DNA of 42,046 nt, taken from the NCBI GenBank assembly GCA_012798185.1, contig JAAZNS010000037.1:1-42046 (forward strand). The letters are read 5' to 3'. A model generated the notes under the pieces. The model did no database searches, was not told where the DNA came from, and worked only from the letters and a program-made list of their open reading frames with translations. A program made the position numbers and the translations under genes. Origin of the DNA: Chloroflexota bacterium (GTDB taxonomy: Bacteria; Chloroflexota; Anaerolineae; Anaerolineales; UBA4823). Below are positions 952 to 29,103 of this stretch, piece after piece; position 1 is the stretch's first letter, and the number at the start of each line of letters is the position of its first letter.

Positions 952-972
952 GGAAAACCTCCATTTACCATA

Positions 973-4654: not shown

Positions 4655-4656
4655 GT

Positions 4657-5442
4657 CTATTTTTGTATATAAAGATCAGAAGCGTGAGGCAACCGGGCGC
4701 GGTGCAAGCCGATGAGCACGCCTACCCCAACTATGGTTGCCAGAATGATAATTACCGTATCGACACCAATCCAATATGGCAGGGTCGGAATCCAATATTG
4801 CCAAGTCAGGCTATACAGCCAGTTGGTTAGGGAATTGGTGGTCAGGTATTCGGCGGCATGCCCGGTAGAGGCAAACAAAAAAAGTGCCGGCCACATCCAC
4901 AGCTTATTTTGGGTTAGGATCTGATGACGTGCCCATTCCCGTAAAGGCTTGATAAAAATTACCAACACCGCAATCAGCGAATATGGAAGCGGCACAAGAT
5001 ACATATACGGCTGCCAGGATGCCGGGTTCACAAACCAGGAAGCCAGCAAAATAATTTCGGCCAAACCGGCTAATTTCCAGCGGTTGGCAAAGGTAAGACC
5101 AGCAACCAAACCGCCCATGGTAGAGGTTACAAAGCTAAACGGTCCAAAAAATGCGCCAAAAGGGAAAAGAATTGTAGCAATAATTGCACCTGCGGCGTTG
5201 GCAACTGCAGCAGCTGGGCCTAACACAACCCCGGAAATGGCGGTCATGATAGCATTGACGGTGATCATCCCGCCCATCCCAGGCACCGGCAAGGCAGGGA
5301 CGGCGCTGGCAGCCACAAAAAGTGCTGCCCAGATGGCAATCAAAGAAATCGGAATGCCAAAGATACGTCCCCGTGATTGCCAAGTGCGCACTGGCGCGGG
5401 TTTTACTTCATCGATTTTTTCAGTTGGATTGGTTTCATTCAT
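4657..5442 (-). CDS. polytopic membrane protein, putative ECF-transporter substrate-capture (S) component, paralog 1 (divergent)
   Basis: 261 aa and hydrophobic, with a strong RBS (AAGGAGAG) upstream. It sits immediately downstream of ECF T/A/A' genes. It shares the pattern AIWAAL..AAS..PA.PV.G and FGP..F....G..AG.....RW with the proteins at 13926-14654 and 17370-18101. The family is unassigned. Confidence 0.6.
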   Translation of the reverse strand: MNETNPTEKIDEVKPAPVRTWQSRGRIFGIPISLIAIWAALFVAASAVPALPVPGMGGMITVNAIMTAISGVVLGPAAAVANAAGAIIATILFPFGAFFGPFSFVTSTMGGLVAGLTFANRWKLAGLAEIILLASWFVNPASWQPYMYLVPLPYSLIAVLVIFIKPLREWARHQILTQNKLWMWPALFLFASTGHAAEYLTTNSLTNWLYSLTWQYWIPTLPYWIGVDTVIIILATIVGVGVLIGLHRARLPHASDLYIQK

Positions 5443-5463
5443 GACGACTCTCTCCTTATTGAT

Positions 5464-6270
5464 TTATACAACCCCAAAGTGAGCCAGGCGCAAGATGATT
5501 GCAACGATCAGGCTCAGTAAGCATCCCGCTAAAAATAGATAATCAGCGCGGCGAAAATGACTTTCTAATAAATATGTGCGTTGTACAGGAGCGCCAAATG
5601 CCCGAGAGCTCATTGCTACATCCAAAATCTGAGAATCGCGGAAGGCACCCAATATCAAGGGAGTTAAAATACTGGCTGAAGCCCGTAACCGGATAAAGAA
5701 ATTTCCGCTCTCGAAATCGCCCACCCCTCGGCACAGCTGGGCTTGCTGAATCAATTCAGCGCGGTTTTGAATGGATGGGAATAAACTCATGGCAGTGGTC
5801 AGAATGAATGCAAAGCGGTAAGGTATCTTCAGCTTTACCAATGCCAACATCAGATCCGACATCGGGGTAGTCATCACCAATAAAGGTGCCACAGTCATGA
5901 TAACCACCAAGCGTAATACCAACGCTAAACCATACATCACGCCTTCTACGGTAATGTATCCGCTGAAACCTATTGCAGGGATTGCATTCGAAATGCGCAG
6001 CAGATTGGTTTGACCAGGATAGAAAAATGCCTGTAATGCAAATATGATGACAGCAATTCCTGTGAAGTATTTGAAAATATCCGCTACCATGTTGAGTGGA
6101 AGTTTTGCCAATGCCCAGGCGCCTAAAACCAGGAAAAGGATAGCTAGAACATAAAAAGGATTAGTAAAAACCAATACGACCAATAATATGGCTAACATTA
6201 ATACCAGTTTGGTACGCGCATCCAGACGATGTAAAAATGTATCTTTTTGGACATAACCTACATCAGCCAT
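5464..6270 (-). CDS. ECF transporter transmembrane (T) component, CbiQ/EcfT family
   Basis: 268-aa multi-TM protein with a coupling-helix type motif (MSSRAFGAP). 8-nt overlap with the upstream ATPase gene. Paralog of 20008-20814. Confidence 0.85.
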   Translation of the reverse strand: MADVGYVQKDTFLHRLDARTKLVLMLAILLVVLVFTNPFYVLAILFLVLGAWALAKLPLNMVADIFKYFTGIAVIIFALQAFFYPGQTNLLRISNAIPAIGFSGYITVEGVMYGLALVLRLVVIMTVAPLLVMTTPMSDLMLALVKLKIPYRFAFILTTAMSLFPSIQNRAELIQQAQLCRGVGDFESGNFFIRLRASASILTPLILGAFRDSQILDVAMSSRAFGAPVQRTYLLESHFRRADYLFLAGCLLSLIVAIILRLAHFGVV

Positions 6271-7126
6271 GATTGCCTCCCCTTCCGTTATTTCCTGCTA
6301 TCGGCGACGAACCCTGCGGCCTGATAACATCGCACATTTCGCGAATATTCAATATTGCCCGGTCGGTCCATCCCATTTGAAAAGCGAAGCGGGTTATTTG
6401 AGGCGGCCGCAAAGATAGTTTTTCAAGCAGTTCGATTTGCGTAAAAGCTTTTGCCGGAGGGGCATCCAGAGCTATCTTTCCGCCAGACATTACCACCACC
6501 CGCTGTGCGTGTTCGGCAACCATCTGCATATCGTGAGTGATGATAATGATCGTTTTACCGGATGTATGCAAACGATCGATAATTTCCATAATGCGCTGCC
6601 CGCCAAAATAATCCTGTCCGGTGGTGGGTTCATCGAAGACAAAGACCTCTGGCTGCATGGATAAGGCACAGGCTACCGCCAATCGTTGGCGATCTCCAAG
6701 GCTTAGGGCAAACGGGTGCTGATCCTGTAAAGATTCCAAACCTAAAATTTGTATAGTCTCTGCCACCCGGCGCTGAATTTCATCTTTGGAGCAGCCAATC
6801 ATCCGCGGGCCAAATCCGATCTCTTCTTCGACGCTATTACAAAATAGCATGTCGTCGGGGTTTTGGAAAACATAACCAATGATACGTGATAGTTCCGATA
6901 CCCGGGCTTTACTGGCGTCTTTACCACCGACTTTAATTGTTCCCTGAGTGGGTCTGAGCAACCCATTAAAATGTTTTGCCAGGGTGGTCTTTCCGCTGCC
7001 ATTTTGACCAACAATCGCTAGATATTCGCCCCGATCAACATTCAGTGAAACCCCACACAGCGCTTCTACGCCGTTGGGATAGACATGCGTTAGGTTTTCT
7101 ACGGTGATCATCGATTCTCTATCCAT
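6263..7126 (-). CDS. ECF transporter ATPase component (A')
   Basis: Walker A GQNGSGKT, signature LSLGDRQR, Walker B VFVFDEPT. The ORF-track start at 7180 would overlap the upstream ATPase by 62 nt. I prefer Met19 (7126, 8-nt overlap); Met24 (7111) is also possible. Confidence 0.85.
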   Translation of the reverse strand: MDRESMITVENLTHVYPNGVEALCGVSLNVDRGEYLAIVGQNGSGKTTLAKHFNGLLRPTQGTIKVGGKDASKARVSELSRIIGYVFQNPDDMLFCNSVEEEIGFGPRMIGCSKDEIQRRVAETIQILGLESLQDQHPFALSLGDRQRLAVACALSMQPEVFVFDEPTTGQDYFGGQRIMEIIDRLHTSGKTIIIITHDMQMVAEHAQRVVVMSGGKIALDAPPAKAFTQIELLEKLSLRPPQITRFAFQMGWTDRAILNIREMCDVIRPQGSSPIAGNNGRGGNHG

Positions 7127-7970
7127 GATGCAACCCTTTGTATAGTAAAACGGCTTCGTCGATGGAAATTGGGATATCACTGATTGGGGAACCGCGTTGG
7201 CGCAGCTCGAAACTGAGCTGGCTTACCTGCGGTGGTCTGATGCGGTTAGAGGCGAGTAAACCTGCCTGCGAAAAGACTTCCCGGGGAGTGCCATCCAGGA
7301 TAAGCATACCATCGTTGATCACCAAAATCCGGTCGGCATATTGGGCAATGAACTCTGTATCGTGGCTGACTAAAATAACCGTTTTGCCCAATCCCCGGTT
7401 AAGCCGGTTGATTACATCCATTACCTGCTCCGAACCCATCGGATCTAGCTCCGAAGTAGGCTCATCCAACACTAAAACATCGGGTTCCATTGCCAGCACA
7501 CACGCAATCGCAACGCGCTGCTGCTGCCCCCCAGAGAGAGCAGATGGCTGGCGGGTTTCGTAGCCTTGCAAACCGACAAAAGTAAGTGTCTCGTGCAGGT
7601 TTTGTAAAATTTTTTGACGGGGCATTCCCAGGTTTTCACAGCCAAAGGCGATCTCCCCTTGCACGTTGACGTTGAACAACTGATTGCGGGCGTTTTGTAC
7701 CACCAAGCCGACATGCTGAGCCATTACAGGAATTTCATTTTCATAGGTATCCAGCCCGGCTACAACAACGGAACCAGACATCTCGCCGCCAAATAGACGC
7801 GGCACAGCGCCATTGAAACAGTAACACAGGGTGGATTTCCCTGCCCCGGTCGGTCCAATCACAGCCAGGAACTGCCCTTCAGGTACCTGAAAGCTGATAT
7901 CCTTCAGTGCGGGTTTATCCGTACGCGGGTAAGCGTAAGTAAGGTTTTTAACTTCGATAATATTTGGCAT
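7119..7970 (-). CDS. ECF transporter ATPase component (A)
   Basis: Walker A GPTGAGKST, signature LSGGQQQR, Walker B VLVLDEPT, H-loop SHD. Confidence 0.9.
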   Translation of the reverse strand: MPNIIEVKNLTYAYPRTDKPALKDISFQVPEGQFLAVIGPTGAGKSTLCYCFNGAVPRLFGGEMSGSVVVAGLDTYENEIPVMAQHVGLVVQNARNQLFNVNVQGEIAFGCENLGMPRQKILQNLHETLTFVGLQGYETRQPSALSGGQQQRVAIACVLAMEPDVLVLDEPTSELDPMGSEQVMDVINRLNRGLGKTVILVSHDTEFIAQYADRILVINDGMLILDGTPREVFSQAGLLASNRIRPPQVSQLSFELRQRGSPISDIPISIDEAVLLYKGLHHG

Positions 7971-8064
7971 GTTTTTTTATAAATCGGGGAAGGACTTGTA
8001 TTCTCTACGCTAGAGATTTTTAAGCCCTTCCCATCTTCATTGAACCTCAATTTATACAATATGC

Positions 8065-8556
8065 TTATTTGAATTTGATCTCAACCACCCACCACATCCA
8101 CTGTTCGTCAAGGTAGGTTTCGCGAGCTTCCTGAGGGAAGGCAATTTTGACCGGTCCGCCTGTTTTCGAATCGAGTGCAGTACCAGCGTTGCGGTGCACC
8201 AGCATAATCGGCCATTTTTGCGCATCGGCAATTGACACATCGATTCCCTTGCCATCCGTCGCAATCACACTGATGGTGGTCGCATCGGCAGATGGTTTAA
8301 CAATTTCTATCAATTTGGACAATAGTACGCCATTATATTTTTGAGCTTCGGTTCCATCACCCACCCAGGGATCGATATATTCGCCATCGACCGCATTGGC
8401 ATCGAAGGTGGCTTCGTCAAATTCATAAGTTCCACCTTCAATATTTCCGGTGACCTTTAAAATGGTTGGGCCTTTTGCAGCTGGCTTTTGGGCGCAGCCC
8501 GCGACAAGGCTGGCAATGACTGCCAGACAAAATAGAATAACGAGGCTTTTTTTCAT
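8065..8556 (-). CDS. small secreted lipoprotein, oxidoreductase-molybdopterin-binding-like fold suspected, function unknown
   Basis: I start at the internal Met (MKKSLVILFCLAVIASLVAGC, a signal peptide plus lipobox). It is preceded by GGAGGA at 8566-8571. The ORF-track N-terminal extension to 8673 lacks support. Confidence 0.7.
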   Translation of the reverse strand: MKKSLVILFCLAVIASLVAGCAQKPAAKGPTILKVTGNIEGGTYEFDEATFDANAVDGEYIDPWVGDGTEAQKYNGVLLSKLIEIVKPSADATTISVIATDGKGIDVSIADAQKWPIMLVHRNAGTALDSKTGGPVKIAFPQEARETYLDEQWMWWVVEIKFK

Positions 8557-8579
8557 TTTCGACACTCCTCCAAAATTGG

Positions 8580-8607
8580 ATATTAGATTGCTTGGCTTTT
8601 CAGCCAA
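8580..8607 (-). promoter_or_regulatory. candidate internal sigma70-type promoter (TTGGCT-16 nt-TAATAT) ahead of the lipoprotein/ECF module 1 genes
   Basis: Read on the minus strand in the 113-nt gap after the SorC regulator gene. Only hexamer similarity supports it. Confidence 0.3.
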
Positions 8608-8625
8608 ATTGATTTTTTTACGGTC

Positions 8626-8648
8626 ATTGTCAAAAAAACATTGACAAT
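8626..8648. promoter_or_regulatory. inverted repeat ATTGTCAA-N7-TTGACAAT, possible operator
   Basis: Perfect 8-bp arms read directly from the sequence. It lies just upstream of the candidate promoter at 8580-8607. Confidence 0.3.
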
Positions 8649-8669
8649 TCTTTTGTTCGATCTTGCTTT

Positions 8670-9629
8670 TCACCTCCTCTCACTGTTCATCATCAGCACT
8701 TCACGGGCTGTGGCGGTATCTGTTACCAAAGTTTTAACCCAGCCTCCCCGCAGTGCACCCAAAATCGCCCTTACTTTTTCCAAACCTCCGGCAATAGCAA
8801 TGACCCGTGGAATAGACTGCAATTGATGTAAGTCGATTCCAATGACACCCGCCATGGGAACAATAGGCTTCCCCTGGATATCGAAAAACCTGCCGCAAAT
8901 ATCACCCACTGCCCCCTTCGCCTCCAGTTGCGCCAATGTACCGGGCGAAATATGGTCTCCGAAGAACATCGACGACATTTGCTGGAACTCTACGTGACCG
9001 ATGCCAACAATCGCTAAATCCAGTTTATTCCATAAGCTGCTTACCCGTTCTACTTCTTGGGTTTTCATCAATGCTTTATGGGTGGCAACATCAGAAGTAA
9101 ACGCTGGCACATGGAAAAATCGATAACTTCCTCCATAGGCTTCTGCCATCCGCCGGGCAAGTTCATTCACCTGAAAGAAAGGCGCCATATCGCCAATGCC
9201 TCCAATGAGCGGAGTGACATGGATGCGGATGGCGCTGTTATTGGGAAAAGAGCTTACCACTTCGAATAATGTGCGCCCCCAGCCAATCCCCACCACCATT
9301 TCATCTCTGAGAACGGTATGAATATGCTCGGCAGCAATTAATCCAATACGGTTTCGCAGATTGACGCCTTCCTGTTCCTCCATACAGGTTAATATCACCT
9401 CAGATAGATTAAATGTGCATCTCAGTTCTTCTTCCAATTGTTGATCGACATATTGAGGATCATTAATGGTTATCTGAACAATGCCCATGTCACGCGCCTG
9501 CTTCAATAAACGTGATACCCGCTGGCGTGTAATGCCTATTCGCCGGGCAATCTGTTGTTGCGTAAGATCGTTCTTATAATATAGTCGAGCAACTTGTGTG
9601 AGTAGCTGAGTTTCGGCTTGATTTTGCAT
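8670..9629 (-). CDS. SorC/DeoR-type sugar-binding transcriptional regulator
   Basis: N-terminal HTH (LTQQQIARRIGITRQRVSRLLKQARDMGIV) followed by a ~250-aa sugar-phosphate-binding type domain. Confidence 0.85.
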   Translation of the reverse strand: MQNQAETQLLTQVARLYYKNDLTQQQIARRIGITRQRVSRLLKQARDMGIVQITINDPQYVDQQLEEELRCTFNLSEVILTCMEEQEGVNLRNRIGLIAAEHIHTVLRDEMVVGIGWGRTLFEVVSSFPNNSAIRIHVTPLIGGIGDMAPFFQVNELARRMAEAYGGSYRFFHVPAFTSDVATHKALMKTQEVERVSSLWNKLDLAIVGIGHVEFQQMSSMFFGDHISPGTLAQLEAKGAVGDICGRFFDIQGKPIVPMAGVIGIDLHQLQSIPRVIAIAGGLEKVRAILGALRGGWVKTLVTDTATAREVLMMNSERR

Positions 9630-9637
9630 AGCAACCT

Positions 9638-11140
9638 TTACTTCTTCTCTTGAATTTCGTTTTGAAATAACGGCCGCAGTGCTGGATACAGACGTTTATA
9701 TCGCTGATAACCGTCTTCATAGCATGGAGATAGCGCATCATCGGGCTCTATAAGGTCGCCCAGTTGTGTCATTATTTGGTTTGCCTGACGAATATCGGAA
9801 AAACACCCCATGCTGATTCCTGCCAATATCGCCGCACCCAAGCAGGCGGTAATTTTATCTTTGATCGGATAAACCGGAATTTGGAGAACATTGGCTTTTA
9901 ATTGATTCCAAAAATGGCTGCGCGAACCGCCGCCGCAAATTATTAAACAATCTGCCTTGATCTTTGCAGCAGCTTGACAATATTCCAATACATGACGGAC
10001 CGCATAACTCACCGCTTCATATACCGCACGAGTAAAGTGACTGCGGGTGTGGTTCATGGTGATACCAACAAAACCTCCCCGCGCCTGGGCATCCCAAATT
10101 GGCGCCCGCTCCCCACAAAGATATGGCATAAAAATCAAACCATCACTTGCTGGTGGAGCCCACGAAGCAGTGTTTTCCAATTCTCGAAAATTAATATTTT
10201 TTTTCATCTCGGGGTAAAAAATATCCACCAGCCAGCGCAAGGTACTCCCACCAAATTGGGTTGGGCCGCAAACAAACTTGTCCTGCGGGCTGAGTTCTGC
10301 CAGAAAAACGCCAAACCCTTCTTCGGCTTGCGGTACACCCAGTGAAATGATCTCCGAAGTGCCGGCAATGTCAACTGCCCTTCCCCATAGACTGGCGCCG
10401 CAGGCAATATTATCGCACCAGGCATCGATGGTGCCAGAAACCACCGGTGTATTGGGAGATAATCCAGTGCGGGCAGCCGCCGATTGAGTAACATTGCCCA
10501 AACAACTTGTCGGGGTTAGAACTTTGGGCATTTTTTCGAGAGGCAATTGAAGGGCAGCGAAGTAATCCTCGTTATAACTGCCAACAGCCGGATCGACAAA
10601 GCTGTAAGCACTGTATAGGTCTGTTGCCATTTCACCGGTAAGACATAACCCGATGAAATCTTTAGGCTGCAAGATAGCAACCGCCTGGTCCCATTCTTCG
10701 TGACGATGTACCTGCAGCCAGCGCAAGCGCGCGGGAGGCAGGGTTGCATCAGCGTTTTGGCTGATGCCGCTCCATGCGAATGCTGCATTCGAAGCAATTC
10801 GCTCGCTTATCCATTGCGCTTCCTCAATAGCACGGTGATCCCGCCATATAATGGCTGGTCCAAGCGCGTTTCCCTGCTTATCCACCATCACATGACCCGG
10901 GCACTGCCCTGAAAGACCCAGGGCGATAATCCGGTTCCTGTCAATCCCATCCAAAATAGAATGCATCGTAACCTGCACGCCGTGCCACCAATCCGCCGGA
11001 TTTTGTGCCGCCCAGCCCGGGTAAGGGTTGGATATCGGCTGTTCAGCCAACGCAGCTGCCAGCTGCCTGCCTTGAAGATCATAAAGGCAGGCTTTCACCG
11101 CCGAAGTACCAATATCCAACCCTGCCAGCAAATCTTTCAA
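9638..11140 (-). CDS. FGGY-family carbohydrate kinase (xylulokinase/LsrK-like)
   Basis: N-terminal GLDIGTSAVKA and C-terminal CGGGSRSHFWNQLKANVL motifs, 500 aa. Confidence 0.9.
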   Translation of the reverse strand: MKDLLAGLDIGTSAVKACLYDLQGRQLAAALAEQPISNPYPGWAAQNPADWWHGVQVTMHSILDGIDRNRIIALGLSGQCPGHVMVDKQGNALGPAIIWRDHRAIEEAQWISERIASNAAFAWSGISQNADATLPPARLRWLQVHRHEEWDQAVAILQPKDFIGLCLTGEMATDLYSAYSFVDPAVGSYNEDYFAALQLPLEKMPKVLTPTSCLGNVTQSAAARTGLSPNTPVVSGTIDAWCDNIACGASLWGRAVDIAGTSEIISLGVPQAEEGFGVFLAELSPQDKFVCGPTQFGGSTLRWLVDIFYPEMKKNINFRELENTASWAPPASDGLIFMPYLCGERAPIWDAQARGGFVGITMNHTRSHFTRAVYEAVSYAVRHVLEYCQAAAKIKADCLIICGGGSRSHFWNQLKANVLQIPVYPIKDKITACLGAAILAGISMGCFSDIRQANQIMTQLGDLIEPDDALSPCYEDGYQRYKRLYPALRPLFQNEIQEKK

Positions 11141-11940
11141 CTTTCGAGCTCCTGTAAAGCCTGTTCAGGCGACACACCGCCATGCACCAATGCCACTAAT
11201 GCCCGGCACATACCCGCCGGGTTAGCATGCTGCCATACATTCCTGCCGATCGCTACACCACTGGCGCCAGCAGCCAGCGCCTCAGCCACCGAAGCTAATA
11301 AGCCGGCTTCATCATCCACCTTGGCACCGCCTAAAACTACAACCGGGCGGTAACAGGAACTCAATGCCTCCCGGTATTGTTTCTGAGGTTGGGCAAAGGG
11401 AGCTTTGATGATATCGGCGCCCAATTCCACACCGACGCGCATGGCAAAACCAATCTCTTCTGGGGTAGGTTCTTTCCCTTGCGCCGGTTTGACCAGCATT
11501 TCAGCCATTACCGGCACTTCCCACACAGCCGCCTGATTGACCAACTCGGTGAGATTATGCAATGACGAAGATTCTTCAGGGAAACCGATCATCCCCATGC
11601 ACACTACCGCATCGGCTCCGAGACGAACAGCATCTTCAACCGAAACAGTGCGCTGGATTGCGCCCATCTGCGGGTTGCGTGTCGAAGAACCCCCATCGGC
11701 TCTCAGCATTAACCCAAGCTTTCCAAATTGACTGCCAAAAGCGCGGGCAATGCCCAGGTTTGTCAATACTGCGTCGACACCCGTGCCGCGGATAGCGTTC
11801 AACAACGCCCCTGGATTTTCCAATCCTCTCATCGGACCCATATACGCAGCATGATCAAAAGCGATGATCACCGTGCGCCCATCTTCACCAAATAACCGAT
11901 TTTTGCGTATATCTTTCACAGTCGCCTCTTTTTTATTCAA
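11137..11940 (-). CDS. class I aldolase, DhnA/FbaB/LsrF (DeoC/LacD superfamily) type
   Basis: 267 aa with IIAFDH, VDAVLTN and a Schiff-base-lysine-like context ADIIKAPF. 4-nt and 8-nt overlaps with neighbours. Confidence 0.8.
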   Translation of the reverse strand: MNKKEATVKDIRKNRLFGEDGRTVIIAFDHAAYMGPMRGLENPGALLNAIRGTGVDAVLTNLGIARAFGSQFGKLGLMLRADGGSSTRNPQMGAIQRTVSVEDAVRLGADAVVCMGMIGFPEESSSLHNLTELVNQAAVWEVPVMAEMLVKPAQGKEPTPEEIGFAMRVGVELGADIIKAPFAQPQKQYREALSSCYRPVVVLGGAKVDDEAGLLASVAEALAAGASGVAIGRNVWQHANPAGMCRALVALVHGGVSPEQALQELES

Positions 11941-12955
11941 ATGTAACCATGGCTTTCAACCCGGTGCGGTTATCTGCATATGCCACAGCTTCTGCCACAT
12001 CGCTAAAGGGAAATTGAGCGGTGATAAACTGGGAAAAATCCATTCGCTTTGAGCTTAATAAGCGCAAAGCCTTTTCCAGGTGAGCAGGAGTCACACCCGA
12101 GGAGCCGGTTAGATAAAATTGTCCGTAATGAATTTTACGGATATCCAAAGATACCATCGATCCCTCGGGCACGCCGGCAAATGCATTGACCGTACCCCCT
12201 GGTCTAACTGCTTCGATACCACTCGCAAGCGCTTCGGCGGTCGAAACTGCCACCATAACGATATCTGCCCCTCTGTCGGCGGTATGCTCATGAACCACGC
12301 TGATCAGATTTTCTCGCGTAATATCCACAATAATATCTGCAAAAAACGCTTGTGCAATTTCCAGACGATGGGGAGTCATCCCTGCTACAATCACTGGAGA
12401 AGCACCATAGACCCGGGCGGCTGCGGCGGTAAATAGACCCATTGGTCCATCGCCTACGACCAACACCGAATTACCATATCTGTAAAAACTATCCTCGAGA
12501 CCTTTGAGCACGCAGCCAACCGGTTCAGCAAGCGCGGCAACCACATTGGGAACATGATCCGGGATAGCAAACACACCTCTCTCTGCCAGCGCACGCGGAA
12601 CATATACATTTTCTGCCAATCCACCGGGGTAAATGGTAACATCATAAAGGTGTGTACATAAAGCTTGCTGATTGTGGAGACAAAAATAACAACCCCCGCA
12701 GGGCAGATAAGGGGCAACGATCACGCGTTGTCCCGCCTGCCAGCGACTTTGCGGCGTTGTTTCAATGACCATACCTGCCAGCTCATGACCCAAGGCATAC
12801 TTCTTTTCCTTAGTACCTTTTTGTACCATTTTTACATCTGTGGTGCAAATACCGCATGCCAATGGGCTGACTATGATATCGCCTGCCTCTAGCTGCATAT
12901 CTGGAAACTCAATAATCTGAACCTCTCCAGGTTTTCCTGCCGAAGCACCTTTCAT
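11933..12955 (-). CDS. zinc-dependent medium-chain alcohol/polyol dehydrogenase
   Basis: Catalytic Zn motif region CGICTTD...GHELAG, structural Zn cysteines CGGCYFCLHNQQALC, Rossmann VVGDGPMG. Confidence 0.9.
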   Translation of the reverse strand: MKGASAGKPGEVQIIEFPDMQLEAGDIIVSPLACGICTTDVKMVQKGTKEKKYALGHELAGMVIETTPQSRWQAGQRVIVAPYLPCGGCYFCLHNQQALCTHLYDVTIYPGGLAENVYVPRALAERGVFAIPDHVPNVVAALAEPVGCVLKGLEDSFYRYGNSVLVVGDGPMGLFTAAAARVYGASPVIVAGMTPHRLEIAQAFFADIIVDITRENLISVVHEHTADRGADIVMVAVSTAEALASGIEAVRPGGTVNAFAGVPEGSMVSLDIRKIHYGQFYLTGSSGVTPAHLEKALRLLSSKRMDFSQFITAQFPFSDVAEAVAYADNRTGLKAMVTFE

Positions 12956-12958
12956 AAG

Positions 12959-13897
12959 CTATTTTTTTGCCCTTTCCATAAAATCATCCACCTGCTTTCG
13001 TGATGGCAAGCCACTGCGGGCACCAATATGTCCAATTTTTATTGCTGCCACAGCGCATCCCAGGCAGATCGCTTCCCGCCAATTTTTTCCTTCCAAATAA
13101 CCCTTGATCAACCCGGCAATAAATGCATCACCGGCGCCAGTGGTATCGACCACGGCTGTTCCCTGCCAGGCAGCAATATGTTCCTCCATGCCAGAAGTAA
13201 ACAGCCTGGCGCCTTCAGAACCCAGGGTTGTAATCACTACTTCAGGTCCCAAGCCCGCCAATATCTGCATTGCCTGAGATAAATTTTCATTCCCCGCAAG
13301 AGCCAGCGTTTCGTTGCGGCTTAACACCAGCACGTCTGTCATCTTTAGGATACTAGCCAGGAATGACAATCCGAACGAAGCCATCACACCGCCAACACCA
13401 TAAAAAACTTTAGCGCCGTTTTTATGCGCGGTTTCAGCAGCTACACATGCCACTTTGGGCAGCGCGTCGCCAATATACAAAATGCGAATTCCATCCAGAA
13501 GGCTGGTATCCAGCTCGCCAGGTTCCTCCAGCGTGGCTACACCGGGTAATCCGACAATCGTGCGGTTTCCGAGTTCATCCACGGTAATAAAACAGCTTGC
13601 GGAATGTGCTCCGGTAACCACTTTAATCCCACGCGTATCCACGCCTGATTTTTTAAACGAATCAACCAATAACCTTCCGCCTTCATCATCTCCAACTTTT
13701 CCCAAAAAAACTACCCGGCTGCCTAATTTTGCCAAAGCCTCGCACACATTCGCATTAGCACCTCCGGGGTAAATTGCGAAGGATGAAGCAGCTACGATAC
13801 TATCGGCGGCAGGCAGCGATGGCACACGAGCAACCATATCTACGGCAGCAGCCCCCAGCACAACAACCTCGACACCAGTCCTGATATCAGATCTCAT
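12959..13897 (-). CDS. PfkB/ribokinase-family carbohydrate (or nucleoside) kinase
   Basis: PGGANANV N-terminal motif and DTTGAGDAFIAG catalytic motif. Confidence 0.9.
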   Translation of the reverse strand: MRSDIRTGVEVVVLGAAAVDMVARVPSLPAADSIVAASSFAIYPGGANANVCEALAKLGSRVVFLGKVGDDEGGRLLVDSFKKSGVDTRGIKVVTGAHSASCFITVDELGNRTIVGLPGVATLEEPGELDTSLLDGIRILYIGDALPKVACVAAETAHKNGAKVFYGVGGVMASFGLSFLASILKMTDVLVLSRNETLALAGNENLSQAMQILAGLGPEVVITTLGSEGARLFTSGMEEHIAAWQGTAVVDTTGAGDAFIAGLIKGYLEGKNWREAICLGCAVAAIKIGHIGARSGLPSRKQVDDFMERAKK

Positions 13898-13925
13898 AGA
13901 AAATCTATTGAAAGACTAAAATGGT

Positions 13926-14654
13926 TCAATCTTCCTCAGATTCTTCTTCGTAAATCATCGGACCAACCGGAATGGATATCTTGGGCAGTCCAATCAACAA
14001 AGGCGTACCGACGATTGCTGCCCCAAGGCTGAAAAGAAAACGTTCGATGGGGGCAATCGGCAATACGGTAAACCAAATGGCTGGCGGCAAGGCGAACATG
14101 ATAAGCGCCCATAAGTTGCCAATAGCCTGGGTGACCACAACCCCCGCTACCGAGGCGCAGAATACTCCTGCAAACATTTTTCCCCGGTTAGGAGAAACCA
14201 GCCAGTCTTTTCCCCAAATCCAGCCGACGGCAATGCCCGCCAAACCAAGGGTGTATAAAAGCGGTGTTGCCCATGCTTTTTGTCCGGTGGGGAAAAGATA
14301 CCATACGCCGCCCAACCCTAATATCAGCAGCAAAGACCAGATCCATTTTCTCTGCATAGCCAAGCCGGCTGTTGCAGCTCCAAACATCGAAATGATGAAT
14401 TGCAGCGGCCCAAACAGCACCGTGTGGGGAGCGATCAACTGCCCAAGAAACGATCCGATGCCAGCAGCAATTGCCCCTGCCCATGGCCCAAATAATATTC
14501 CCGCCAGGGGCACCAGCGAAGCGCCGATGTTAAAAGTAGCCCCAGTGCCAATCACAGGAAATGCAGGTAATAAGGATGCTGCGGCAGTTAACGCTGCCCA
14601 AATGGCGATGATAGCCGGATGGGTAGATATAAAAGCTGATTTTTGGGGGCTCAT
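13926..14654 (-). CDS. polytopic membrane protein, putative ECF S component, paralog 3
   Basis: 242 aa with RBS AAGGAGG upstream. By eye about two-thirds identical to 17370-18101, including a shared C-terminal LLIGLPKISIPVG.MIYE plus an acidic tail. Confidence 0.6.
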   Translation of the reverse strand: MSPQKSAFISTHPAIIAIWAALTAAASLLPAFPVIGTGATFNIGASLVPLAGILFGPWAGAIAAGIGSFLGQLIAPHTVLFGPLQFIISMFGAATAGLAMQRKWIWSLLLILGLGGVWYLFPTGQKAWATPLLYTLGLAGIAVGWIWGKDWLVSPNRGKMFAGVFCASVAGVVVTQAIGNLWALIMFALPPAIWFTVLPIAPIERFLFSLGAAIVGTPLLIGLPKISIPVGPMIYEEESEED

Positions 14655-14687
14655 GTCTTTCCTCCTTAGTCAAGAATTGTTTTCATC

Positions 14688-17303
14688 TCAACTTGCTACT
14701 GTTTCGCGAACTTTGATCACTCGGTTGACCAAAGTGACCATATCCATCACTTCCATCTTATCTTTAGATTGGCTGCGCTGTTGTTGGAATTGGGTCAAAC
14801 ATGCCGGGCAGGCAGTAAGCAGCACACTAGCACCTGTCCCAATTGCTTCTGCCCAGCGTTGAGCGCCAGCCGTATCGGTGAGGCGGGGGAAATCATAGCG
14901 AACAAAGGAGCCTGCACCGCAACAAAACGCGTCTTTCCCATGGCGTGGCATTTCCGAAATCCTTAATCCGGGAATGGCTTCGATGATTTTGCGCGGAGCT
15001 TCATAAACGCCCAGCTGCCTGCCCAGAGTGCAAGGATCGTGATAAGTTGCTACAGCACCGGAAGAGTAAATATCAAATTCAATACGCCCGGCTTCAGCTT
15101 CTTCTGCCACCACCTCAATCAGGTGGCTGGTTTCGAATGGAAGCGGCTCACCCAATACTTCGGGCATCTCCCGCTGGAATGTTTCATAACATCCAGAGCA
15201 AACAAACACCAGCTTCTTTACCCCAAGATCTTTATAGGTTTGGATATTATGGCGCATGAATTCAATCGCTTTTTCCCGCTCTCCAGCAGACATGAGAGGA
15301 TGAGCGCAGCACCATTCCGCTGAAGCGATGGTGTAATCCAAACCCATCTTGTCCATTAATTCCACAGCTTCTTGAGCGGCAGAGCGGCGAATATAAGACG
15401 GAGTGCAGCCCACAAATAACGCCATAGGCGCCTGCCGATCCAGCCTGGATTGATCTTTCAGCCAGCGAAAACGATCTCCTCCTGCATTGCCATATGGATT
15501 GCGTTCTTGCATTACCGCCTGGGTAATTTGCTTTAACCCTGCAGGCGATAAGCCACGCTCTGCCATATCTTCGCGCATCGCCTGGAAAATCTTACGGATA
15601 TCGATGTATTTGAAACAATGTGCACCGCATGAACCGCACATGGTACAGGAAAAGATCCGTTCGGCGACCTCGGCGTTATAATCAATTTCGCCTTCGAGGA
15701 TCGAGCGCGCTACAGCAATCCGCCCGCGGGCGCTGTGTGTCTCAAATGAGCCATATGCATAGGAGGGACACATATGATAAGGACCAATCCAGCTCAAATC
15801 GAAGCAGAAGCCGCAGCGCAGACACTGGTAAGTAAGGTCGCCAACCGTATCAATTGCCCGGTTTTGCGAAGGAAGGCGAGCCGGGATAGCACCGACCGAA
15901 GGTTTTCCTCCCAGCATTAAGACCCCGGGATTAAGGATATTGTTGGGGTCCATGGTTTTTTTGAGCGTTTGCATAAGCTGATACGCCGGCCCAAGTTTTT
16001 CCATAATATATGGTGCAATACCCGCCACGATCCCTCCGGGTGAAGCCCAACGGCTATACAGCATCTCCGAGATATCCCGGCGGATTTTCAAGCCGTATTG
16101 ATGGTCTTCCACGTTCATTTCGGGATACAGGGTATCCACCCAAAGGAAAGCTGCGTTGCGAGAGAAATAGACATCCAAGCCTTTGGTGTGGATACCATGT
16201 TGGTCCCATTCAGCCTTGTGTTCTGCAATGTAAGCATCGAGTGCTGGAATGGCTTCTTTAAGTGCCTGGGTGGGTAGAAAACCTGAAACTTCCGGGCAAT
16301 AATAGGGCCGACTGCCATAATATGCGCCAGGGCCCATATTACGCAGCCAGGAATACATATGCTCTGTCCAATACATCCGCGTGGGTTTAGGATCTTGTGG
16401 TCTCCCGTTGAATGTCTGACAGATAACTTCACAGGCGCGTTTGCGTTCCTCGGCATGCAGCCGGCTGTCACGGATGATCACGTGCAGGAAATAATTACCG
16501 GGTATGTCATCCGGTTTCGGTCCGCCAAAAATGCCAATGGCAAATGTCGCAGCTGCCTGGCGTTGGATGGCAGATACCGCATCGACGATATCATCAAGCT
16601 GGTCGAAAGCATAGAACAAGAAATCTTCGACCTCAGGAATTCGGCGGATTCGCAAGGCGACTTTAGTGATGATACCCAGGGTACCACAAGAACCGATGAA
16701 TAAGCCCGCCAGGTCGGTACCGTTGGCACTGCGCTCGATGGGAATGTTGCCGGCTGCCTCATTAGCAGCGGAGCCGGTGTGCATCAGTGTGCCATCGGGC
16801 AAGACCACTTCTAAGGTCACTACATGATCTCCGGTGACACCATATTCGGTGATACCATGGGGAACTGCGTTGTAAGCTACCGTGCCGCCAACACTGGCAG
16901 AGAACATCCCTCCGCCACCCGGGGCAGCCAGTTCCCAGCCCAGTTTTTTGAGGTCGGCATCGATGGCATGCCATATTGCGCCTGTCTCGGCGACTACAAC
17001 CTGGTTTTCTAAATCGATCTCGTATTTATTCATTAAATCCAAGGCCAGCACAATGCTGCCTTCCATGGCACCAGAATCCACAAAAGTTGTTGCCCTGCCC
17101 CAGATAAACAGGGGCTTTTTAATTTCATTTGCCAGCTTCACTAAAGCAATCAACTCATCCACGGTTTCGGGCCGGGTAATATACCCGGGTATCTCGCCAG
17201 GAGTAGGTCCACAATCCCTGCGGTAGCACAAACGGTCCACCATCGCGTTGGACGCATGATTTGGTCCGCAAATTTCCTGTAAACGTTTTAAGATATCATC
17301 CAT
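14688..17303 (-). CDS. fusion FAD-linked oxidase (GlcD-like) + Fe-S/CCG-domain oxidoreductase (GlcF-like); 2-hydroxyacid-type dehydrogenase
   Basis: 871 aa with an N-terminal PCMH-type FAD-binding region. Two ferredoxin motifs are present (CLRCGFC...CP and CTMCGSCGAHC). Two CCG-type cysteine-rich regions are present (EWCCAHP, VCSGC, AFCCGAG, TACPAC). Confidence 0.9.
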   Translation of the reverse strand: MDDILKRLQEICGPNHASNAMVDRLCYRRDCGPTPGEIPGYITRPETVDELIALVKLANEIKKPLFIWGRATTFVDSGAMEGSIVLALDLMNKYEIDLENQVVVAETGAIWHAIDADLKKLGWELAAPGGGGMFSASVGGTVAYNAVPHGITEYGVTGDHVVTLEVVLPDGTLMHTGSAANEAAGNIPIERSANGTDLAGLFIGSCGTLGIITKVALRIRRIPEVEDFLFYAFDQLDDIVDAVSAIQRQAAATFAIGIFGGPKPDDIPGNYFLHVIIRDSRLHAEERKRACEVICQTFNGRPQDPKPTRMYWTEHMYSWLRNMGPGAYYGSRPYYCPEVSGFLPTQALKEAIPALDAYIAEHKAEWDQHGIHTKGLDVYFSRNAAFLWVDTLYPEMNVEDHQYGLKIRRDISEMLYSRWASPGGIVAGIAPYIMEKLGPAYQLMQTLKKTMDPNNILNPGVLMLGGKPSVGAIPARLPSQNRAIDTVGDLTYQCLRCGFCFDLSWIGPYHMCPSYAYGSFETHSARGRIAVARSILEGEIDYNAEVAERIFSCTMCGSCGAHCFKYIDIRKIFQAMREDMAERGLSPAGLKQITQAVMQERNPYGNAGGDRFRWLKDQSRLDRQAPMALFVGCTPSYIRRSAAQEAVELMDKMGLDYTIASAEWCCAHPLMSAGEREKAIEFMRHNIQTYKDLGVKKLVFVCSGCYETFQREMPEVLGEPLPFETSHLIEVVAEEAEAGRIEFDIYSSGAVATYHDPCTLGRQLGVYEAPRKIIEAIPGLRISEMPRHGKDAFCCGAGSFVRYDFPRLTDTAGAQRWAEAIGTGASVLLTACPACLTQFQQQRSQSKDKMEVMDMVTLVNRVIKVRETVAS

Positions 17304-17369
17304 GCGTAATACTCCAATGTATAAAATTATTAATTGTTCAGGCTATGGTAGAAAGCCCCGAAACAACGA

Positions 17370-18101
17370 TTAATCTTCTTCTTCCTTTTCACTTTCATAG
17401 ATCATCTGACCAACCGGAATTGAAATTTTCGGCAGCCCGATTAGCAAAGGCGTCCCGACGATCGCAGCACCCAGAGCAAACAATATCCTTTGCACCGGAG
17501 CGATGACTAAAACTGCTGCCCATACTTCTTTGGGTAGAGCAAACATCAGCAATGCCCAAAAGTTGCCAGCTGACCATGTGCAAACGATCCCTGATAAAGT
17601 GGTTAGAAAAACACCAGCGAACATGAGACCCCGGTTTGGAGAGCTAATCCATTTTCCTCCCCAGAACCAGCCGACCAGGGCGGCAATCACGCCAACCAGA
17701 TATCCAATCGGGGTAAACCAGGCAGCTTGTCCCAAGGGAGAAAAATACCATACAATGCCAAACAATATCGTAACCGCAATGGGGATAAACCATTTGCGCT
17801 GCATCGCAAAACCAGCACAGGCAGCGCCGAGCATTGCCAGAATGAATTGGAATGGTCCAAAGATGACCGTGTGCGGCGCGATCAATTGTCCAATCAATCC
17901 ACCGATGCCAGCTGCGATGGCACCTGCCCACGGGCCAAATAACACGCCTGCCAGCGGTATCATTACGTCGCTGATGCTGAATGTTGCCCCAGTACCAATG
18001 ACAGGGATGGCTGGAAGCAGGCTGGCAACCGCAATAAGCGCTGCCCATACAGCCATCAGTGCTGGATGAGTTTTTACACGAACTGATTTTCTGTTTGCCA
18101 T
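17370..18101 (-). CDS. polytopic membrane protein, putative ECF S component, paralog 2
   Basis: 243 aa with RBS AAAGGAG upstream. It is directly downstream of the fused ECF ATPase and paralogous to 13926-14654. Confidence 0.6.
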   Translation of the reverse strand: MANRKSVRVKTHPALMAVWAALIAVASLLPAIPVIGTGATFSISDVMIPLAGVLFGPWAGAIAAGIGGLIGQLIAPHTVIFGPFQFILAMLGAACAGFAMQRKWFIPIAVTILFGIVWYFSPLGQAAWFTPIGYLVGVIAALVGWFWGGKWISSPNRGLMFAGVFLTTLSGIVCTWSAGNFWALLMFALPKEVWAAVLVIAPVQRILFALGAAIVGTPLLIGLPKISIPVGQMIYESEKEEED

Positions 18102-23012: not shown

Positions 23013-23030
23013 ATTTACGGGAAAATTATC

Positions 23031-28820: not shown

Positions 28821-29098
28821 TCACTGTTACCGTGAAATTATTCAATTTATTAGCGATTTACGCAGGCATAAAAACACAATCCTTCGATCTTGCCGAAGGG
28901 ATAACTATCAAACAATTGCTTGAACGTATGGTCCATGAGTACCCGGCCCCATTTAAAGATATGATATACCATCACGAAAAAATCAACCCCCATTTGCGCA
29001 TTTTTTTGAACGAGCATTTACTTAATGAAAGCGAACTCGATGCAGCACTTTCGGATGGAGATAAACTGATGCTCTTTCCTGCCATTGCCGGAGGATAA
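28817..29098 (+). CDS. MoaD/ThiS-family ubiquitin-like small protein with C-terminal Gly-Gly
   Basis: 93 aa starting MITVTVKLF and ending PAIAGG-stop. ATGA overlap with the AOR2 stop. The track start 28715 is an in-frame upstream extension inside AOR2. Confidence 0.75.
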   Translation: MITVTVKLFNLLAIYAGIKTQSFDLAEGITIKQLLERMVHEYPAPFKDMIYHHEKINPHLRIFLNEHLLNESELDAALSDGDKLMLFPAIAGG

Positions 29099-29103
29099 AT
29101 GCC

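Follow-up and report, generated by a model that had tools for sequence, protein, structure and literature searches.

ECF transporters are known as scavengers of vitamins and metals, and new families of their S components are hard to find because the sequences diverge so much. The Lha heme-importer paper describes them as trace-nutrient scavenging systems whose S components have very high affinity (PMC7299338). In group I systems, exemplified by BioMNY, CbiMNQO, QrtTUVW, and LhaSTA, each S gene sits in one cluster with the T and A genes that serve it. FolT (PDB 4z7f, 5jsz) is a group II folate S component. An AxxxA motif is needed for docking to EcfT; the S-component fold is common to non-transport proteins, and MreD and sensor kinases lack AxxxA (PMC11109136).

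Here, we analyze three genes, S1, S2, and S3, in a 42,046-nucleotide stretch of Chloroflexota DNA (contig JAAZNS010000037.1; "the window" denotes this whole stretch). Their products probably capture the substrates of two ABC importers of the ECF type, each with a dedicated (group I) module, and they belong to a conserved yet poorly described family from anaerobic bacteria of three phyla. Source annotations read only "ECF transporter S component" or "hypothetical protein," with the S3 clade "hypothetical" everywhere, and we found no paper on the family in the literature searched. A preliminary description of this DNA, made from its letters, had suggested that the family may be new or poorly described.

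Two ECF modules in a catabolic array

The window contains two complete ECF modules, with S genes clustered with their own T/A genes in the group I arrangement. The relevant features, by descending coordinate, are the following:

20835..22169 (-), TRZ/ATZ-type aminohydrolase, a deaminase, at the head of the array; best PDB matches are MTA/SAH deaminases
20008..20814 (-), EcfT of module a; PF02361 CbiQ, E 3.7e-31; LRA and ARAFG coupling-helix-type motifs
18232..19989 (-), fused EcfA-EcfA' ATPase of module a; exceeds the equivalog cut-offs of the ECF ATPase models TIGR04520 and TIGR04521
17370..18101 (-), S1, predicted ECF S component, 243 aa; PF07155, Foldseek, tree, AxxxA, dN/dS
14688..17303 (-), FAD_binding_4, 4Fe-4S, and 2xCCG fusion oxidoreductase, between the ATPase gene and S2
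13926..14654 (-), S2, predicted ECF S component, 242 aa; profile search, synteny, tree, dN/dS
12959..13897 (-), PfkB ribokinase-like kinase
11933..12955 (-), Zn-dependent polyol/alcohol dehydrogenase
11137..11940 (-), DhnA/DeoC-family class I aldolase; MJ0400, LsrF
9638..11140 (-), FGGY pentulose-type kinase; XylB model 296 bits, under cut-off
8670..9629 (-), SorC/DeoR-type sugar-phosphate-sensing regulator
8065..8556 (-), extracytoplasmic PruR-like lipoprotein with a truncated SUOX fold, directly upstream of module b
7119..7970 (-), EcfA of module b; ABC_tran; 45.6% identity to the fused ATPase's N-terminal domain
6263..7180 (-), EcfA' of module b; degenerate signature motif LSLGD
5464..6270 (-), EcfT of module b; PF02361, E 8e-25; CRG and SRAFG motifs
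4657..5442 (-), S3, divergent predicted S component, 261 aa, separate clade, likely partner of module b; homology, Foldseek, 12/12 loci
3632..4654 (-), ADP-ribosylglycohydrolase (ARH)-family ribosyl hydrolase, directly after S3; PF03747, E 2.7e-61
2787..3635 (-), xylose-isomerase-like TIM barrel (isomerase, epimerase, or phosphodiesterase); weak CbiR model match
1..2794 (-), CUT1-type ABC transporter; permeases at 1853-2794 and 973-1860, lipoprotein binding protein from 951 to beyond the window start

The T subunits possess XRX motifs and the A subunits possess Walker motifs; in the second domain of the fused ATPase, the signature motif is degenerate (LSKGE). The two EcfT proteins are 34% identical. 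As the preliminary description had it, two of the three S genes lie directly downstream of ECF T/A genes: S1 lies 130 bp beyond the fused EcfA-A' gene, and S3 lies 21 bp beyond the EcfT gene of module b. S2 is preceded by the FAD/Fe-S oxidoreductase gene, whose 871-aa product resembles D-lactate dehydrogenase in its N-terminal part. The ARH-family protein matches MJ1187, DraG, and ARH3 in the PDB, and a PDB sequence search with the TIM barrel protein gave no match. Next door lie genes for AFORs, an SsnA-like hydrolase, and a dihydropyrimidinase whose TIGR02033 score exceeds the cut-off. Across the window, no Rfam family attains its gathering score, so that no riboswitch, FMN riboswitch included, was detected there. 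The scan for promoters and terminators is uninformative because its counts do not exceed those of shuffled controls, the exception being two divergent promoters that plausibly form a pair near 22.3-22.4 kb. Control of the array appears to lie with the sugar-phosphate-sensing SorC/DeoR regulator rather than with a vitamin riboswitch.

An array of about 20 genes is conserved over the Anaerolineae. Specifically, synteny is retained in about 20 Anaerolineae genomes in the order Amido-T-AA-FAD/FeS-S-PfkB-(ADH-aldolase), continuing FGGY-SorC-lipoprotein-(A-A-T-S3)-ARH-TIM, with the FAD/Fe-S gene holding its position in about 17-20 loci. Because of this conservation, we regard the proposed link to a catabolic array as real. 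A Bacillota MAG carries a compact version, aldolase-PfkB-ARH-ADH-FGGY-S-T-A-A. The steadiest enzyme partner of the S family across the three phyla is the TRZ/ATZ-type aminohydrolase, with orthologs in 25 loci; those outside the Anaerolineae (Bacillota and one Spirochaete MAG) are 38-47% identical. Gene context nevertheless differs between phyla, and in termite-gut Treponema the only partners are an Amidohydro_2 gene and a PRPP-synthetase-like gene. For the Amidohydro_2 partner, a PDB search gave weak decarboxylase matches alone. An exhaustive search also recovered archaeal and other distant relatives, whose gene contexts (glycine cleavage, radical SAM) are unrelated and were of no help in assigning a ligand. 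T/A genes adjoin S homologs in 59-64 of 72 loci, spanning three phyla. Module b is present in all 12 loci of the S3 clade, and S3 is found nowhere without it.

We infer transport, the pairing of S proteins with modules, and the ligand. Module a (EcfT plus fused EcfA-A') would work with S1 and S2, and module b (EcfA, EcfA', and EcfT) would work with S3, whose binding-site composition differs. The S subunit would bind its ligand outside and dock the AxxxA face of helix 1 onto the T coupling helices; it would then topple and release the ligand into the cell, after which hydrolysis of ATP would return the system to its starting state. Both importers may supply a pathway of breakdown or salvage whose genes are co-transcribed, comprising the TRZ/ATZ-type aminohydrolase, ribosyl hydrolase, ribokinase, polyol dehydrogenase, pentulose kinase, aldolase, and 2-hydroxyacid-type FAD/Fe-S dehydrogenase.

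S1, S2, and S3 as probable S components

The direct evidence comprises the homology of the three proteins, the modeled fold, the AxxxA motif, conserved gene order, and purifying selection. We assign them as ECF S components because of their fold, their AxxxA motif, and the adjacency of T/A genes, which bears out the S-component likeness first noticed in the sequence. AF2 models of S1 and S3 have pLDDT values of 87.9 and 87.6. The Foldseek comparison that had been suggested as a check returned solved S components almost exclusively: nearly all of the top 26 PDB matches to S1, led by FolT, BioY, and RibU, and all of the top 18 matches to S3. These matches include FolT, BioY, PanT, ThiT, and RibU, with probabilities up to 1.0 and target-normalized TM-scores of 0.6-0.7 (maximum 0.70, TmRibU), at E-values of just 5e-3 to 1e-1. 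Helix 1 of S1 contains A17xxxA21 and A20xxxA24. Among family members, the S3 clade included, alanine occupies these positions in 78/81 (A17), 80/81 (A20), 76/81 (A21), and 67/81 (A24) sequences. Counting against the assignment are the extra length of S1-S3, which exceed solved S components by 50-80 residues and have 7-8 predicted helical segments rather than 6, the Foldseek E-values, and the marginal sequence similarity to any solved S component (FolT, E 0.014).

Profile searches place the family less precisely. S1 (40.8 bits) and S2 (38.3 bits) exceed the 26.7-bit gathering score of PF07155, the RibU-type family, as do most of their homologs, although only the N-terminal half aligns, to positions 8-97 of the 172 in the profile. 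S3 shows no PF07155 match at E up to 10, and its clade has no Pfam match. Matches to PF12822 are under cut-off, and a 5TMR_LYT match is weak (E 0.12). None of the NCBIfam substrate families reaches its cut-off for S1-S3; FolT-family matches are sub-threshold, with TIGR04518 scoring 25.8 (S1), 17.6 (S2), and 18.8 (S3) bits against a cut-off of 60. A profile search of the PDB returned FolT alone, at a marginal E of 0.014, beside a spurious cytochrome oxidase match. We reject the named substrate families for S1-S3 on the sub-threshold NCBIfam and PF12822 scores and the marginal FolT match. The original remark that the proteins were not recognizable as any named S family thus stands with regard to NCBIfam and requires qualification with regard to Pfam, given the partial PF07155 alignment of S1 and S2.

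Pairwise comparison puts S1 and S2 at 64% identity over 242 aa without gaps (E 5e-98), in keeping with the earlier estimate of two-thirds. S3, described as more divergent on the same skeleton, is 28% identical to S1 and S2 over about 231 aa; at E 1e-13 and 1e-12, this homology is far above chance. The motifs quoted previously, HPA..WAAL, PVIGTGATF, QLIAPHTV.FGP.QF, LFGPWAGAIAAGIG, and LLIGLPKISIPVG.MIYE, are all present, and the S1/S2 pair bears the acidic tails ESEKEEED and EEESEED, a feature missing from S3. S1, S2, and S3 are under purifying selection relative to orthologs, with dN/dS of about 0.02-0.09 (0.048 for S1, 0.021 for S2), values that are approximate because dS is saturated.

The tree resolves two clades, S1 plus S2 and S3. 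S2 is the mainstream ortholog, kept 3' of the FAD/Fe-S gene in Anaerolineae, and S1 is an extra copy seen solely in the window and its closest relative, L001. The S1/S2 pair is a recent, lineage-specific duplication that probably serves module a. Every polar residue conserved in the family is common to S1 and S2 and is replaced in S3. Therefore, we replace the three specificities proposed initially with two: the ligands of S1 and S2 are most likely identical or very similar.

Candidate ligands

Our best guess from gene context is an amino-N-heterocycle to which ribose or ribitol is attached. This context speaks for a scarce compound, pterin- or nucleoside-like, more than for the bulk carbon substrate considered in the preliminary description. 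Of the ligand classes, a pterin is the likeliest, a choice that we make tentatively from the neighboring genes. A pterin-type substrate is indicated by the PruR-like lipoprotein and by the MCH, pterin-binding methyltransferase, and sarcosine-oxidase-like neighbors in Bacillota. Specifically, the lipoprotein has a signal peptide and lipobox (LVAGC), scores 26.2 bits against PF00174, and matches PDB 7kos, "Pterin Binding Protein," at E 2.5e-6; the hallmark Trp of PruR is present in 16/16 sequences. At the positions of PruR Asn102 and Tyr104, the lipoprotein has Asp and Lys, and the Trp160 region falls outside the alignment. The MCH that adjoins S homologs in Bacillota matches the M. kandleri enzyme over its full length (E 1e-76) and exceeds the TIGR03120 cut-off, and further neighbors there include Pterin_bind methyltransferase, MTHFR-like, and sarcosine-oxidase-like genes. 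The pterin-binding methyltransferases are closer to folate-type than to methanopterin-type enzymes. The aminohydrolase family also contains isoxanthopterin and 8-oxoguanine deaminases.

A further clue to a pterin is that the best match of the S proteins, both by sequence and by Foldseek E-value, is FolT. Counting against a pterin are the absence from the lipoprotein of the pterin-contacting Asn and Tyr of PruR and the folate-like character of the methyltransferases, as well as the Treponema partners and the variation of context by phylum.

Methanopterin-type cofactors are the most specific candidate that gene context suggests, and a doubtful one. More speculative still is the notion that the S family represents the missing bacterial importer of unconjugated or archaeal-type pterins, with which methanogen-associated anaerobes (Anaerolineae, Bacillota, and termite-gut and sediment Spirochaetes) would scavenge methanopterin-type cofactors shed by archaea and then dismantle or reuse them. 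In such a scheme, MCH and the pterin-binding methyltransferase would handle C1-loaded forms, a SoxB-like amine dehydrogenase would cut the N10 linkage, the aminohydrolase would deaminate the pterin, and the ARH enzyme would remove the alpha-linked ribose. Ribose and ribitol would be consumed via ribokinase, polyol dehydrogenase, pentulose kinase, and aldolase, and the hydroxy-acid tail would be oxidized by the FAD/Fe-S enzyme. Literature searches yielded nothing relevant on methanopterin degradation, on MCH in Moorella or Anaerolineae, on ECF transporters in connection with ADP-ribosylglycohydrolases or Anaerolineae, or on ECF transporters in catabolic clusters.

The S components could instead import an adenosine-type nucleoside (5'-methylthioadenosine, 5'-deoxyadenosine, S-adenosylhomocysteine, or a modified nucleoside), which we consider unlikely but worth serious attention. 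The compound would be deaminated and then de-ribosylated by the ARH-family enzyme, with the sugar passing through the kinases and aldolase and the base through the neighboring divergent operon. What speaks for a nucleoside is that the closest solved relatives of the aminohydrolase are the MTA/SAH deaminases 4dzh, 4dyk, 4gbd, and 4f0r; the enzyme also scores 305 bits against the NCBIfam 5'-deoxyadenosine deaminase model, although all of its deaminase matches are under the equivalog cut-offs. The ribokinase-like PfkB, ARH ribosyl hydrolase, DeoR-like regulator, and DeoC-family aldolase suit such a substrate, as do the dihydropyrimidinase, SsnA-like hydrolase, and AFORs next door and a Bmp-family nucleoside-type binding protein adjoining one Bacillota homolog. 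Left unexplained, however, are the PruR-like lipoprotein and the recurrent MCH, pterin-binding methyltransferase, and sarcosine-oxidase-like neighbors.

It is improbable that S1 and S2 are RibU-like importers of flavins or deazaflavins (riboflavin, FO, F420), supplying flavoenzymes or flavin breakdown. The PF07155 family, "ECF-type riboflavin transporter S component," is broad, and its name does not fix a substrate; against the passing scores of S1 and S2 stand the half-length alignment and the lack of any match to S3. TmRibU gives the highest TM-score, and the enzymes of ribityl-type catabolism (polyol dehydrogenase, pentulose kinase) would be appropriate, but the window has no FMN riboswitch. 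Flavoenzymes neighbor the S genes both in Anaerolineae, in the form of the FAD/Fe-S fusion, and in Bacillota, as DAO and Pyr_redox_2, whereas the Treponema loci have no flavoenzyme partner. Finally, S1-S3 could be S-fold proteins without a transport function, MreD- or 5TMR-sensor-like anchors or sensors for adjacent enzymes, given that non-transport proteins share the fold (PMC11109136), that S2 adjoins an oxidoreductase gene rather than T/A genes, and that the 5TMR_LYT model matches weakly. We reject this highly improbable reading because AxxxA, absent from MreD and sensor kinases (PMC11109136), is near-invariant here and because about 60 of 72 loci have ECF T/A genes alongside; the S proteins also carry no fused kinase or output domain.

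Significance and comparison with described systems

The present analysis defines a cross-phylum S family and its sister clade, S3, both with clear signatures and their own energizing modules and both wired to breakdown rather than to cofactor biosynthesis. How pterins cross bacterial membranes is unknown, according to a 2026 review (PMC13259868). If the ligand is a pterin, the S family would help to answer that question, and fermenting bacteria would have a route for recycling the cofactors of neighboring methanogens. Should methanopterin scavenging take place, an archaeal C1 cofactor would for the first time have a catabolic route, and an ECF importer would for the first time serve catabolism. 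If the ligand is instead a nucleoside, an ECF system that feeds catabolism would still be a rarity. The S family has two cultured carriers, Longilinea arvoryzae KOME-1 and Moorella naiadis, and the idea is therefore testable.

Among described S components, FolT offers the best sequence-profile match and the best Foldseek E-value. It shares with S1-S3 the overall fold, the AxxxA of helix 1, and G-x-(I/L)-F-G-P...G at the helix 2/3 junction, and its ligand class is also related if the pterin idea holds. However, identity is 17-20%, FolT is about 165-200 aa long versus about 243-261 aa here, and FolT is encoded by a solitary gene and served by a shared housekeeping module, whereas S1-S3 are accompanied by their own T/A genes inside a catabolic cluster. 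RibU comes close to S1 and S2 by PF07155 score and to S1 by the TM-score of TmRibU, but the profile aligns to the N-terminal half alone and has no match in the S3 clade; nor is the context here one of riboflavin biosynthesis or salvage.

The lipoprotein, rather than any S protein, can be compared with PruR (PDB 7kos, 7rkb), a small secreted SUOX-fold domain in which Trp replaces the Mo-ligating Cys. PruR partners with the c-di-GMP enzyme DcpA in Proteobacteria, whereas the lipoprotein belongs to a monoderm-type Chloroflexi operon beside an ECF module, and a conserved T-D-G-K motif takes the place of the Asn102/Tyr104 contacts. With BioMNY, CbiMNQO, QrtTUVW, and LhaSTA, the locus has in common the clustering of S genes with dedicated T/A genes. 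It differs from them in that two paralogous modules and three S genes occupy one array, an oxidoreductase gene lies between the ATPase and S genes, a SUOX-fold lipoprotein is encoded upstream of module b, and a SorC/DeoR regulator appears to govern the joint transcription of sugar kinase and aldolase genes.

The S proteins and their energising modules

Three minus-strand membrane proteins, S1, S2, and S3, lie where the preliminary description placed them. The window also encodes two complete energising modules, a and b.

Features of the window
1-2794, minus strand: CUT1-type sugar ABC transporter (two permeases and a lipoprotein binding protein)
4657-5442, minus strand: S3, ORF of 261 aa
5464-6270: EcfT, module b
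6263-7180, minus strand: EcfA', module b
7119-7970: EcfA, module b
8065-8556, minus strand: lipoprotein, lipobox LVAGC, truncated SUOX fold
13926-14654, minus strand: S2, ORF of 242 aa
14688-17303, minus strand: FAD/Fe-S fusion oxidoreductase, 871 aa
17370-18101, minus strand: S1, ORF of 243 aa
18232-19989, minus strand: fused A-A' ATPase, module a, above both ECF ATPase equivalog cut-offs
20008-20814: EcfT, module a
22476-30426, plus strand: divergent operon next to the array

Pairwise alignment bears out the close paralogy of S1 and S2, originally judged by eye, and the greater divergence of S3. Specifically, S1 and S2 align without gaps along their full length at 64% identity (E 5e-98), and S3 is 28% identical to each across ~231 residues (E 1e-13 to S1 and 1e-12 to S2). 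The motifs quoted earlier were all found, as were the acidic tails of S1 and S2. Such C-terminal tails (E/D runs of 6-15 residues) occur family-wide in the S1/S2 type, in all three phyla (homologues in loci L029-L071 of other genomes carry them), and are absent from the S3 clade. As described, two of the three S genes follow ECF T/A genes: S1 lies 130 bp after the fused ATPase gene, and S3 lies 21 bp after EcfT. S2 follows the 871-aa oxidoreductase gene by 33 bp. Purifying selection acts on all three genes, with dN/dS against orthologues of ~0.05 (S1), ~0.02 (S2), and ~0.09 (S3), values that are rough, dS being saturated.

The proposal that these proteins are ECF S components holds in fold, motif, and gene clustering. 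Confident AlphaFold2 models were made from family alignments for S1 (pLDDT 87.9, pTM 0.86) and S3 (pLDDT 87.6, pTM 0.83). In Foldseek comparisons with the PDB, solved S components make up nearly all of the top 26 matches to S1 and all of the top 18 to S3. Those matched are FolT, BioY, PanT, ThiT, RibU, and the S subunits of 4huq and 4hzu, with probability up to 1.0 and target-normalised TM up to 0.70, at identities of just 12-20% and modest E-values. Helix 1 carries a near-invariant AxxxA motif: among 81 family members, alanine occupies S1 positions 17, 20, 21, and 24 in 78, 80, 76, and 67, respectively, and Trp19 is present in 80. The AxxxA motif contacts EcfT and sets transporters apart from MreD and sensor-kinase look-alikes (Partipilo and Slotboom, PMC11109136). 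We infer that S1, S2, and S3 dock on EcfT. The proteins exceed solved S components by 50-80 residues, and seven to eight helical segments are predicted in them.

Modules a and b are paralogous: their T subunits are 34% identical and their A domains about 45%. Each T protein has two X-Arg-X motifs near the C-terminal coupling region. The second ATPase domain of both modules has a degenerate ABC signature (LSKGE in the ATPase at 18232-19989, minus strand, and LSLGD in that at 6263-7180, minus strand) in place of LSGGQ, and the first domain is canonical. This arrangement suggests that one ATP site may be catalytically weakened.

Family distribution and number of specificities

A word-index-limited search of 5.8 billion proteins returned at least 185 S1/S2-type proteins at E <= 0.001, the best 120 listed being 53-100% identical to S1. 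Few of the matches listed carry an organism name, and all that do are Anaerolineae MAGs; annotations read "ECF transporter S component", "uncharacterized membrane protein", or "hypothetical protein". The relatives of S3 number 68; every one is Anaerolineae-type and labelled "hypothetical", with no Pfam domain recorded for any; within the S3 group, a precomputed PF07155 entry exists only for the window's own S3. Exhaustive profile searching of 1.84 billion cluster representatives yielded 695 clusters at E <= 1e-3 (204 at E <= 1e-10), including archaeal proteins without annotation. Scanning one genome per species produced 72 loci in Anaerolineae (among them the isolate Longilinea arvoryzae KOME-1), Bacillota (among them Moorella naiadis), Spirochaetes of termite guts and sediments, and Halanaerobiaceae. 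Habitats are anoxic throughout. The nearest relative of the window is an Anaerolineales MAG (locus L001), whose S1 is 86% identical. A distant archaeal relative (233 aa, PF07155) on Thermoprotei MAG contigs L076-L078 sits right after glycine-cleavage P-protein genes, with T, H, and lipoate-ligase genes close by; no ECF module lies near it on those contigs.

Three specificities had been proposed for the array; we read it as having two, S1 and S2 working with module a and S3 with module b. The family-conserved polar residues H12, T37, T40, Q72, H77, T78, and R205 are all common to S1 and S2, which favours two specificities over three, whereas most are substituted in the S3 clade (H12 by P/S, T37 and T40 by M, H77 by Y/F, T78 by G, and R205 by D). 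S3 orthologues, moreover, occur in 12 loci, each time directly 3' of a module-b-type A-A'-T set. In a distance tree, S3 and its orthologues form a deep separate clade, and S1 and S2 fall within one small Anaerolineae sub-clade. Among the loci compared, the extra S1 copy right after the ATPase gene exists only in the window and L001; another locus, L020, has a tandem S pair, and the remaining Anaerolineae carry one S gene only, which follows the FAD/Fe-S gene. Compared across a single pair of genomes, S1 has evolved faster than S2 (dN 0.092 versus 0.057).

A conserved catabolic array

The array comprises about 20 co-directional genes, tightly spaced or overlapping. In transcription order, they encode a TRZ/ATZ-type aminohydrolase, T, and A-A'; S1, the FAD/Fe-S/CCG oxidoreductase, and S2; a PfkB ribokinase-like kinase and a Zn-dependent dehydrogenase; a DhnA/DeoC-type aldolase, an FGGY pentulose-type kinase, and a SorC/DeoR regulator; the lipoprotein, the A, A', and T of module b, and S3; and an ADP-ribosylglycohydrolase-family protein (ARH), a xylose-isomerase-like TIM barrel protein, and the CUT1 transporter. 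The last closes the array, its binding-protein gene extending past the window start, and makes this an island with three uptake systems. Neighbour clustering of the 72 loci shows the gene order kept in ~20 Anaerolineae genomes, with T and A genes adjoining S homologues in 59-64 of the 72. The array takes a compact form, aldolase-PfkB-ARH-ADH-FGGY-S-T-A-A, in a Bacillota MAG. No riboswitch was found across the window, and the regulator is similar to DeoR and LsrR, which sense sugar phosphates, with scores under equivalog cut-offs. Such features mark an operon for catabolism or salvage and not one for vitamin homeostasis, and the earlier suggestion that the S proteins serve a catabolic array stands.

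The 871-aa fusion joins a D-lactate-dehydrogenase-like FAD domain to a 4Fe-4S dicluster and two CCG domains. Its gene lies between the ECF ATPase and S genes in ~17-20 Anaerolineae loci, positioned as if it were a member of the transporter operon. Several Anaerolineae keep the divergent operon beside the ECF array. Its products are an XRE-cupin regulator, two aldehyde:ferredoxin oxidoreductase-family proteins, a 4Fe-4S ferredoxin, an SsnA-like aminohydrolase, and a dihydropyrimidinase/D-hydantoinase (above the TIGR02033 cut-off). These enzymes are heterocycle-degrading types, and the operon probably functions in heterocycle breakdown. A third type of context is found in the termite-gut Treponema loci L040-L063: S-T-A-A' stands beside genes for PRPP-synthetase-like, small Lys-rich, and Amidohydro_2 proteins and for an FGGY kinase, with neither a TRZ/ATZ hydrolase nor a methenyl-tetrahydromethanopterin cyclohydrolase (MCH) among the neighbours.

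Candidate ligands and known systems

Gene context is our guide to the ligand. The aminohydrolase is the most conserved enzyme partner across phyla, with orthologues in 25 loci; their identities (50-77% in Anaerolineae, 38-47% in Bacillota and one Spirochaete MAG) well exceed its match to any solved structure. Thus, an amino-substituted N-heterocycle is probably part of the ligand. An attached ribose or ribitol is suggested by the set of ribosyl hydrolase, ribokinase, polyol dehydrogenase, pentulose kinase, and aldolase.

Tentatively, and with more doubt than confidence, we propose a pterin. This reading draws on several independent clues, among them the PruR-like lipoprotein, FolT as the top match for the S proteins, and the MCH genes that repeatedly flank the S gene in Bacillota. 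MCH homologues are full-length (L033:10818-11777; L081:1851-2819; L082:196-1146 and 4249-5211); they align end to end with the M. kandleri enzyme (E 1e-76) and exceed the equivalog cut-off of TIGR03120. They directly adjoin the S gene and ECF module in Moorella and other Bacillota, with two copies in L082. A pterin-binding methyltransferase often accompanies them. These clusters also encode a SoxB-like dehydrogenase with sarcosine-oxidase-alpha-type partners, an M20 carboxypeptidase-like protein, and Amidohydro_2 proteins, and the whole set likewise favours a pterin. An MTHFR-like gene in some Spirochaete loci points the same way.

In methanopterin, a pterin is combined with ribitol, a hydroxy-acid tail, and ribose phosphate in alpha linkage. 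It is the only candidate that would draw on every enzyme type observed, and the family's habitats are anoxic; however, the methyltransferases resemble folate-type enzymes, and a methanopterin-type cofactor is unlikely. Those methyltransferases, the kinship of the aminohydrolase with MTA/SAH deaminases (its nearest solved relatives), and a Bmp-type nucleoside binding protein adjoining one S homologue keep other candidates in contention: a nucleoside, which we consider somewhat unlikely, and a flavin or deazaflavin, which is very improbable. Were the pterin or methanopterin reading true, the S family would be of considerably greater interest. A 2026 review describes the route of pterins through bacterial membranes as unknown (PMC13259868).

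A literature search on the S family or its gene cluster found nothing. We regard as new the cross-phylum S subfamily without an assigned ligand, the sister clade S3 overlooked by current annotation, an array that combines two modules with three S genes, the oxidoreductase gene inserted between ATPase and S genes, the SUOX-fold lipoprotein gene 5' of one ECF module, and the consistent catabolic context.

The lipoprotein (ORF of 202 aa, start probably M40), encoded just upstream of module b, has its best PDB matches in the periplasmic pterin-binding protein PruR (7kos, E 2.5e-6; 7rkb). Like PruR, it has the hallmark Trp replacing the Mo-ligating Cys, in 16 of 16 sequences, but the Asn102 and Tyr104 contacts of PruR are substituted. 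Conserved motifs in the 16 Anaerolineae sequences are DPW(V/M)GDG, TDGK, GGPVK, and a C-terminal WxWW. If the lipoprotein serves as an extracytoplasmic partner of the ECF module, that would be unusual.

The view that the S proteins belong to no named family survives in part. FolT is their best match by sequence and by Foldseek E-value, but NCBIfam returned only FolT-family matches for S1, S2, and S3, all sub-threshold. S1 and S2 do pass the RibU-type model PF07155 ("ECF-type riboflavin transporter S component"; 40.8 and 38.3 bits versus a gathering score of 26.7), but across only its N-terminal half; a Pfam search of S3 gave no match. Mechanistically, S1-S3 are ordinary ECF S components of dedicated (group I) systems.
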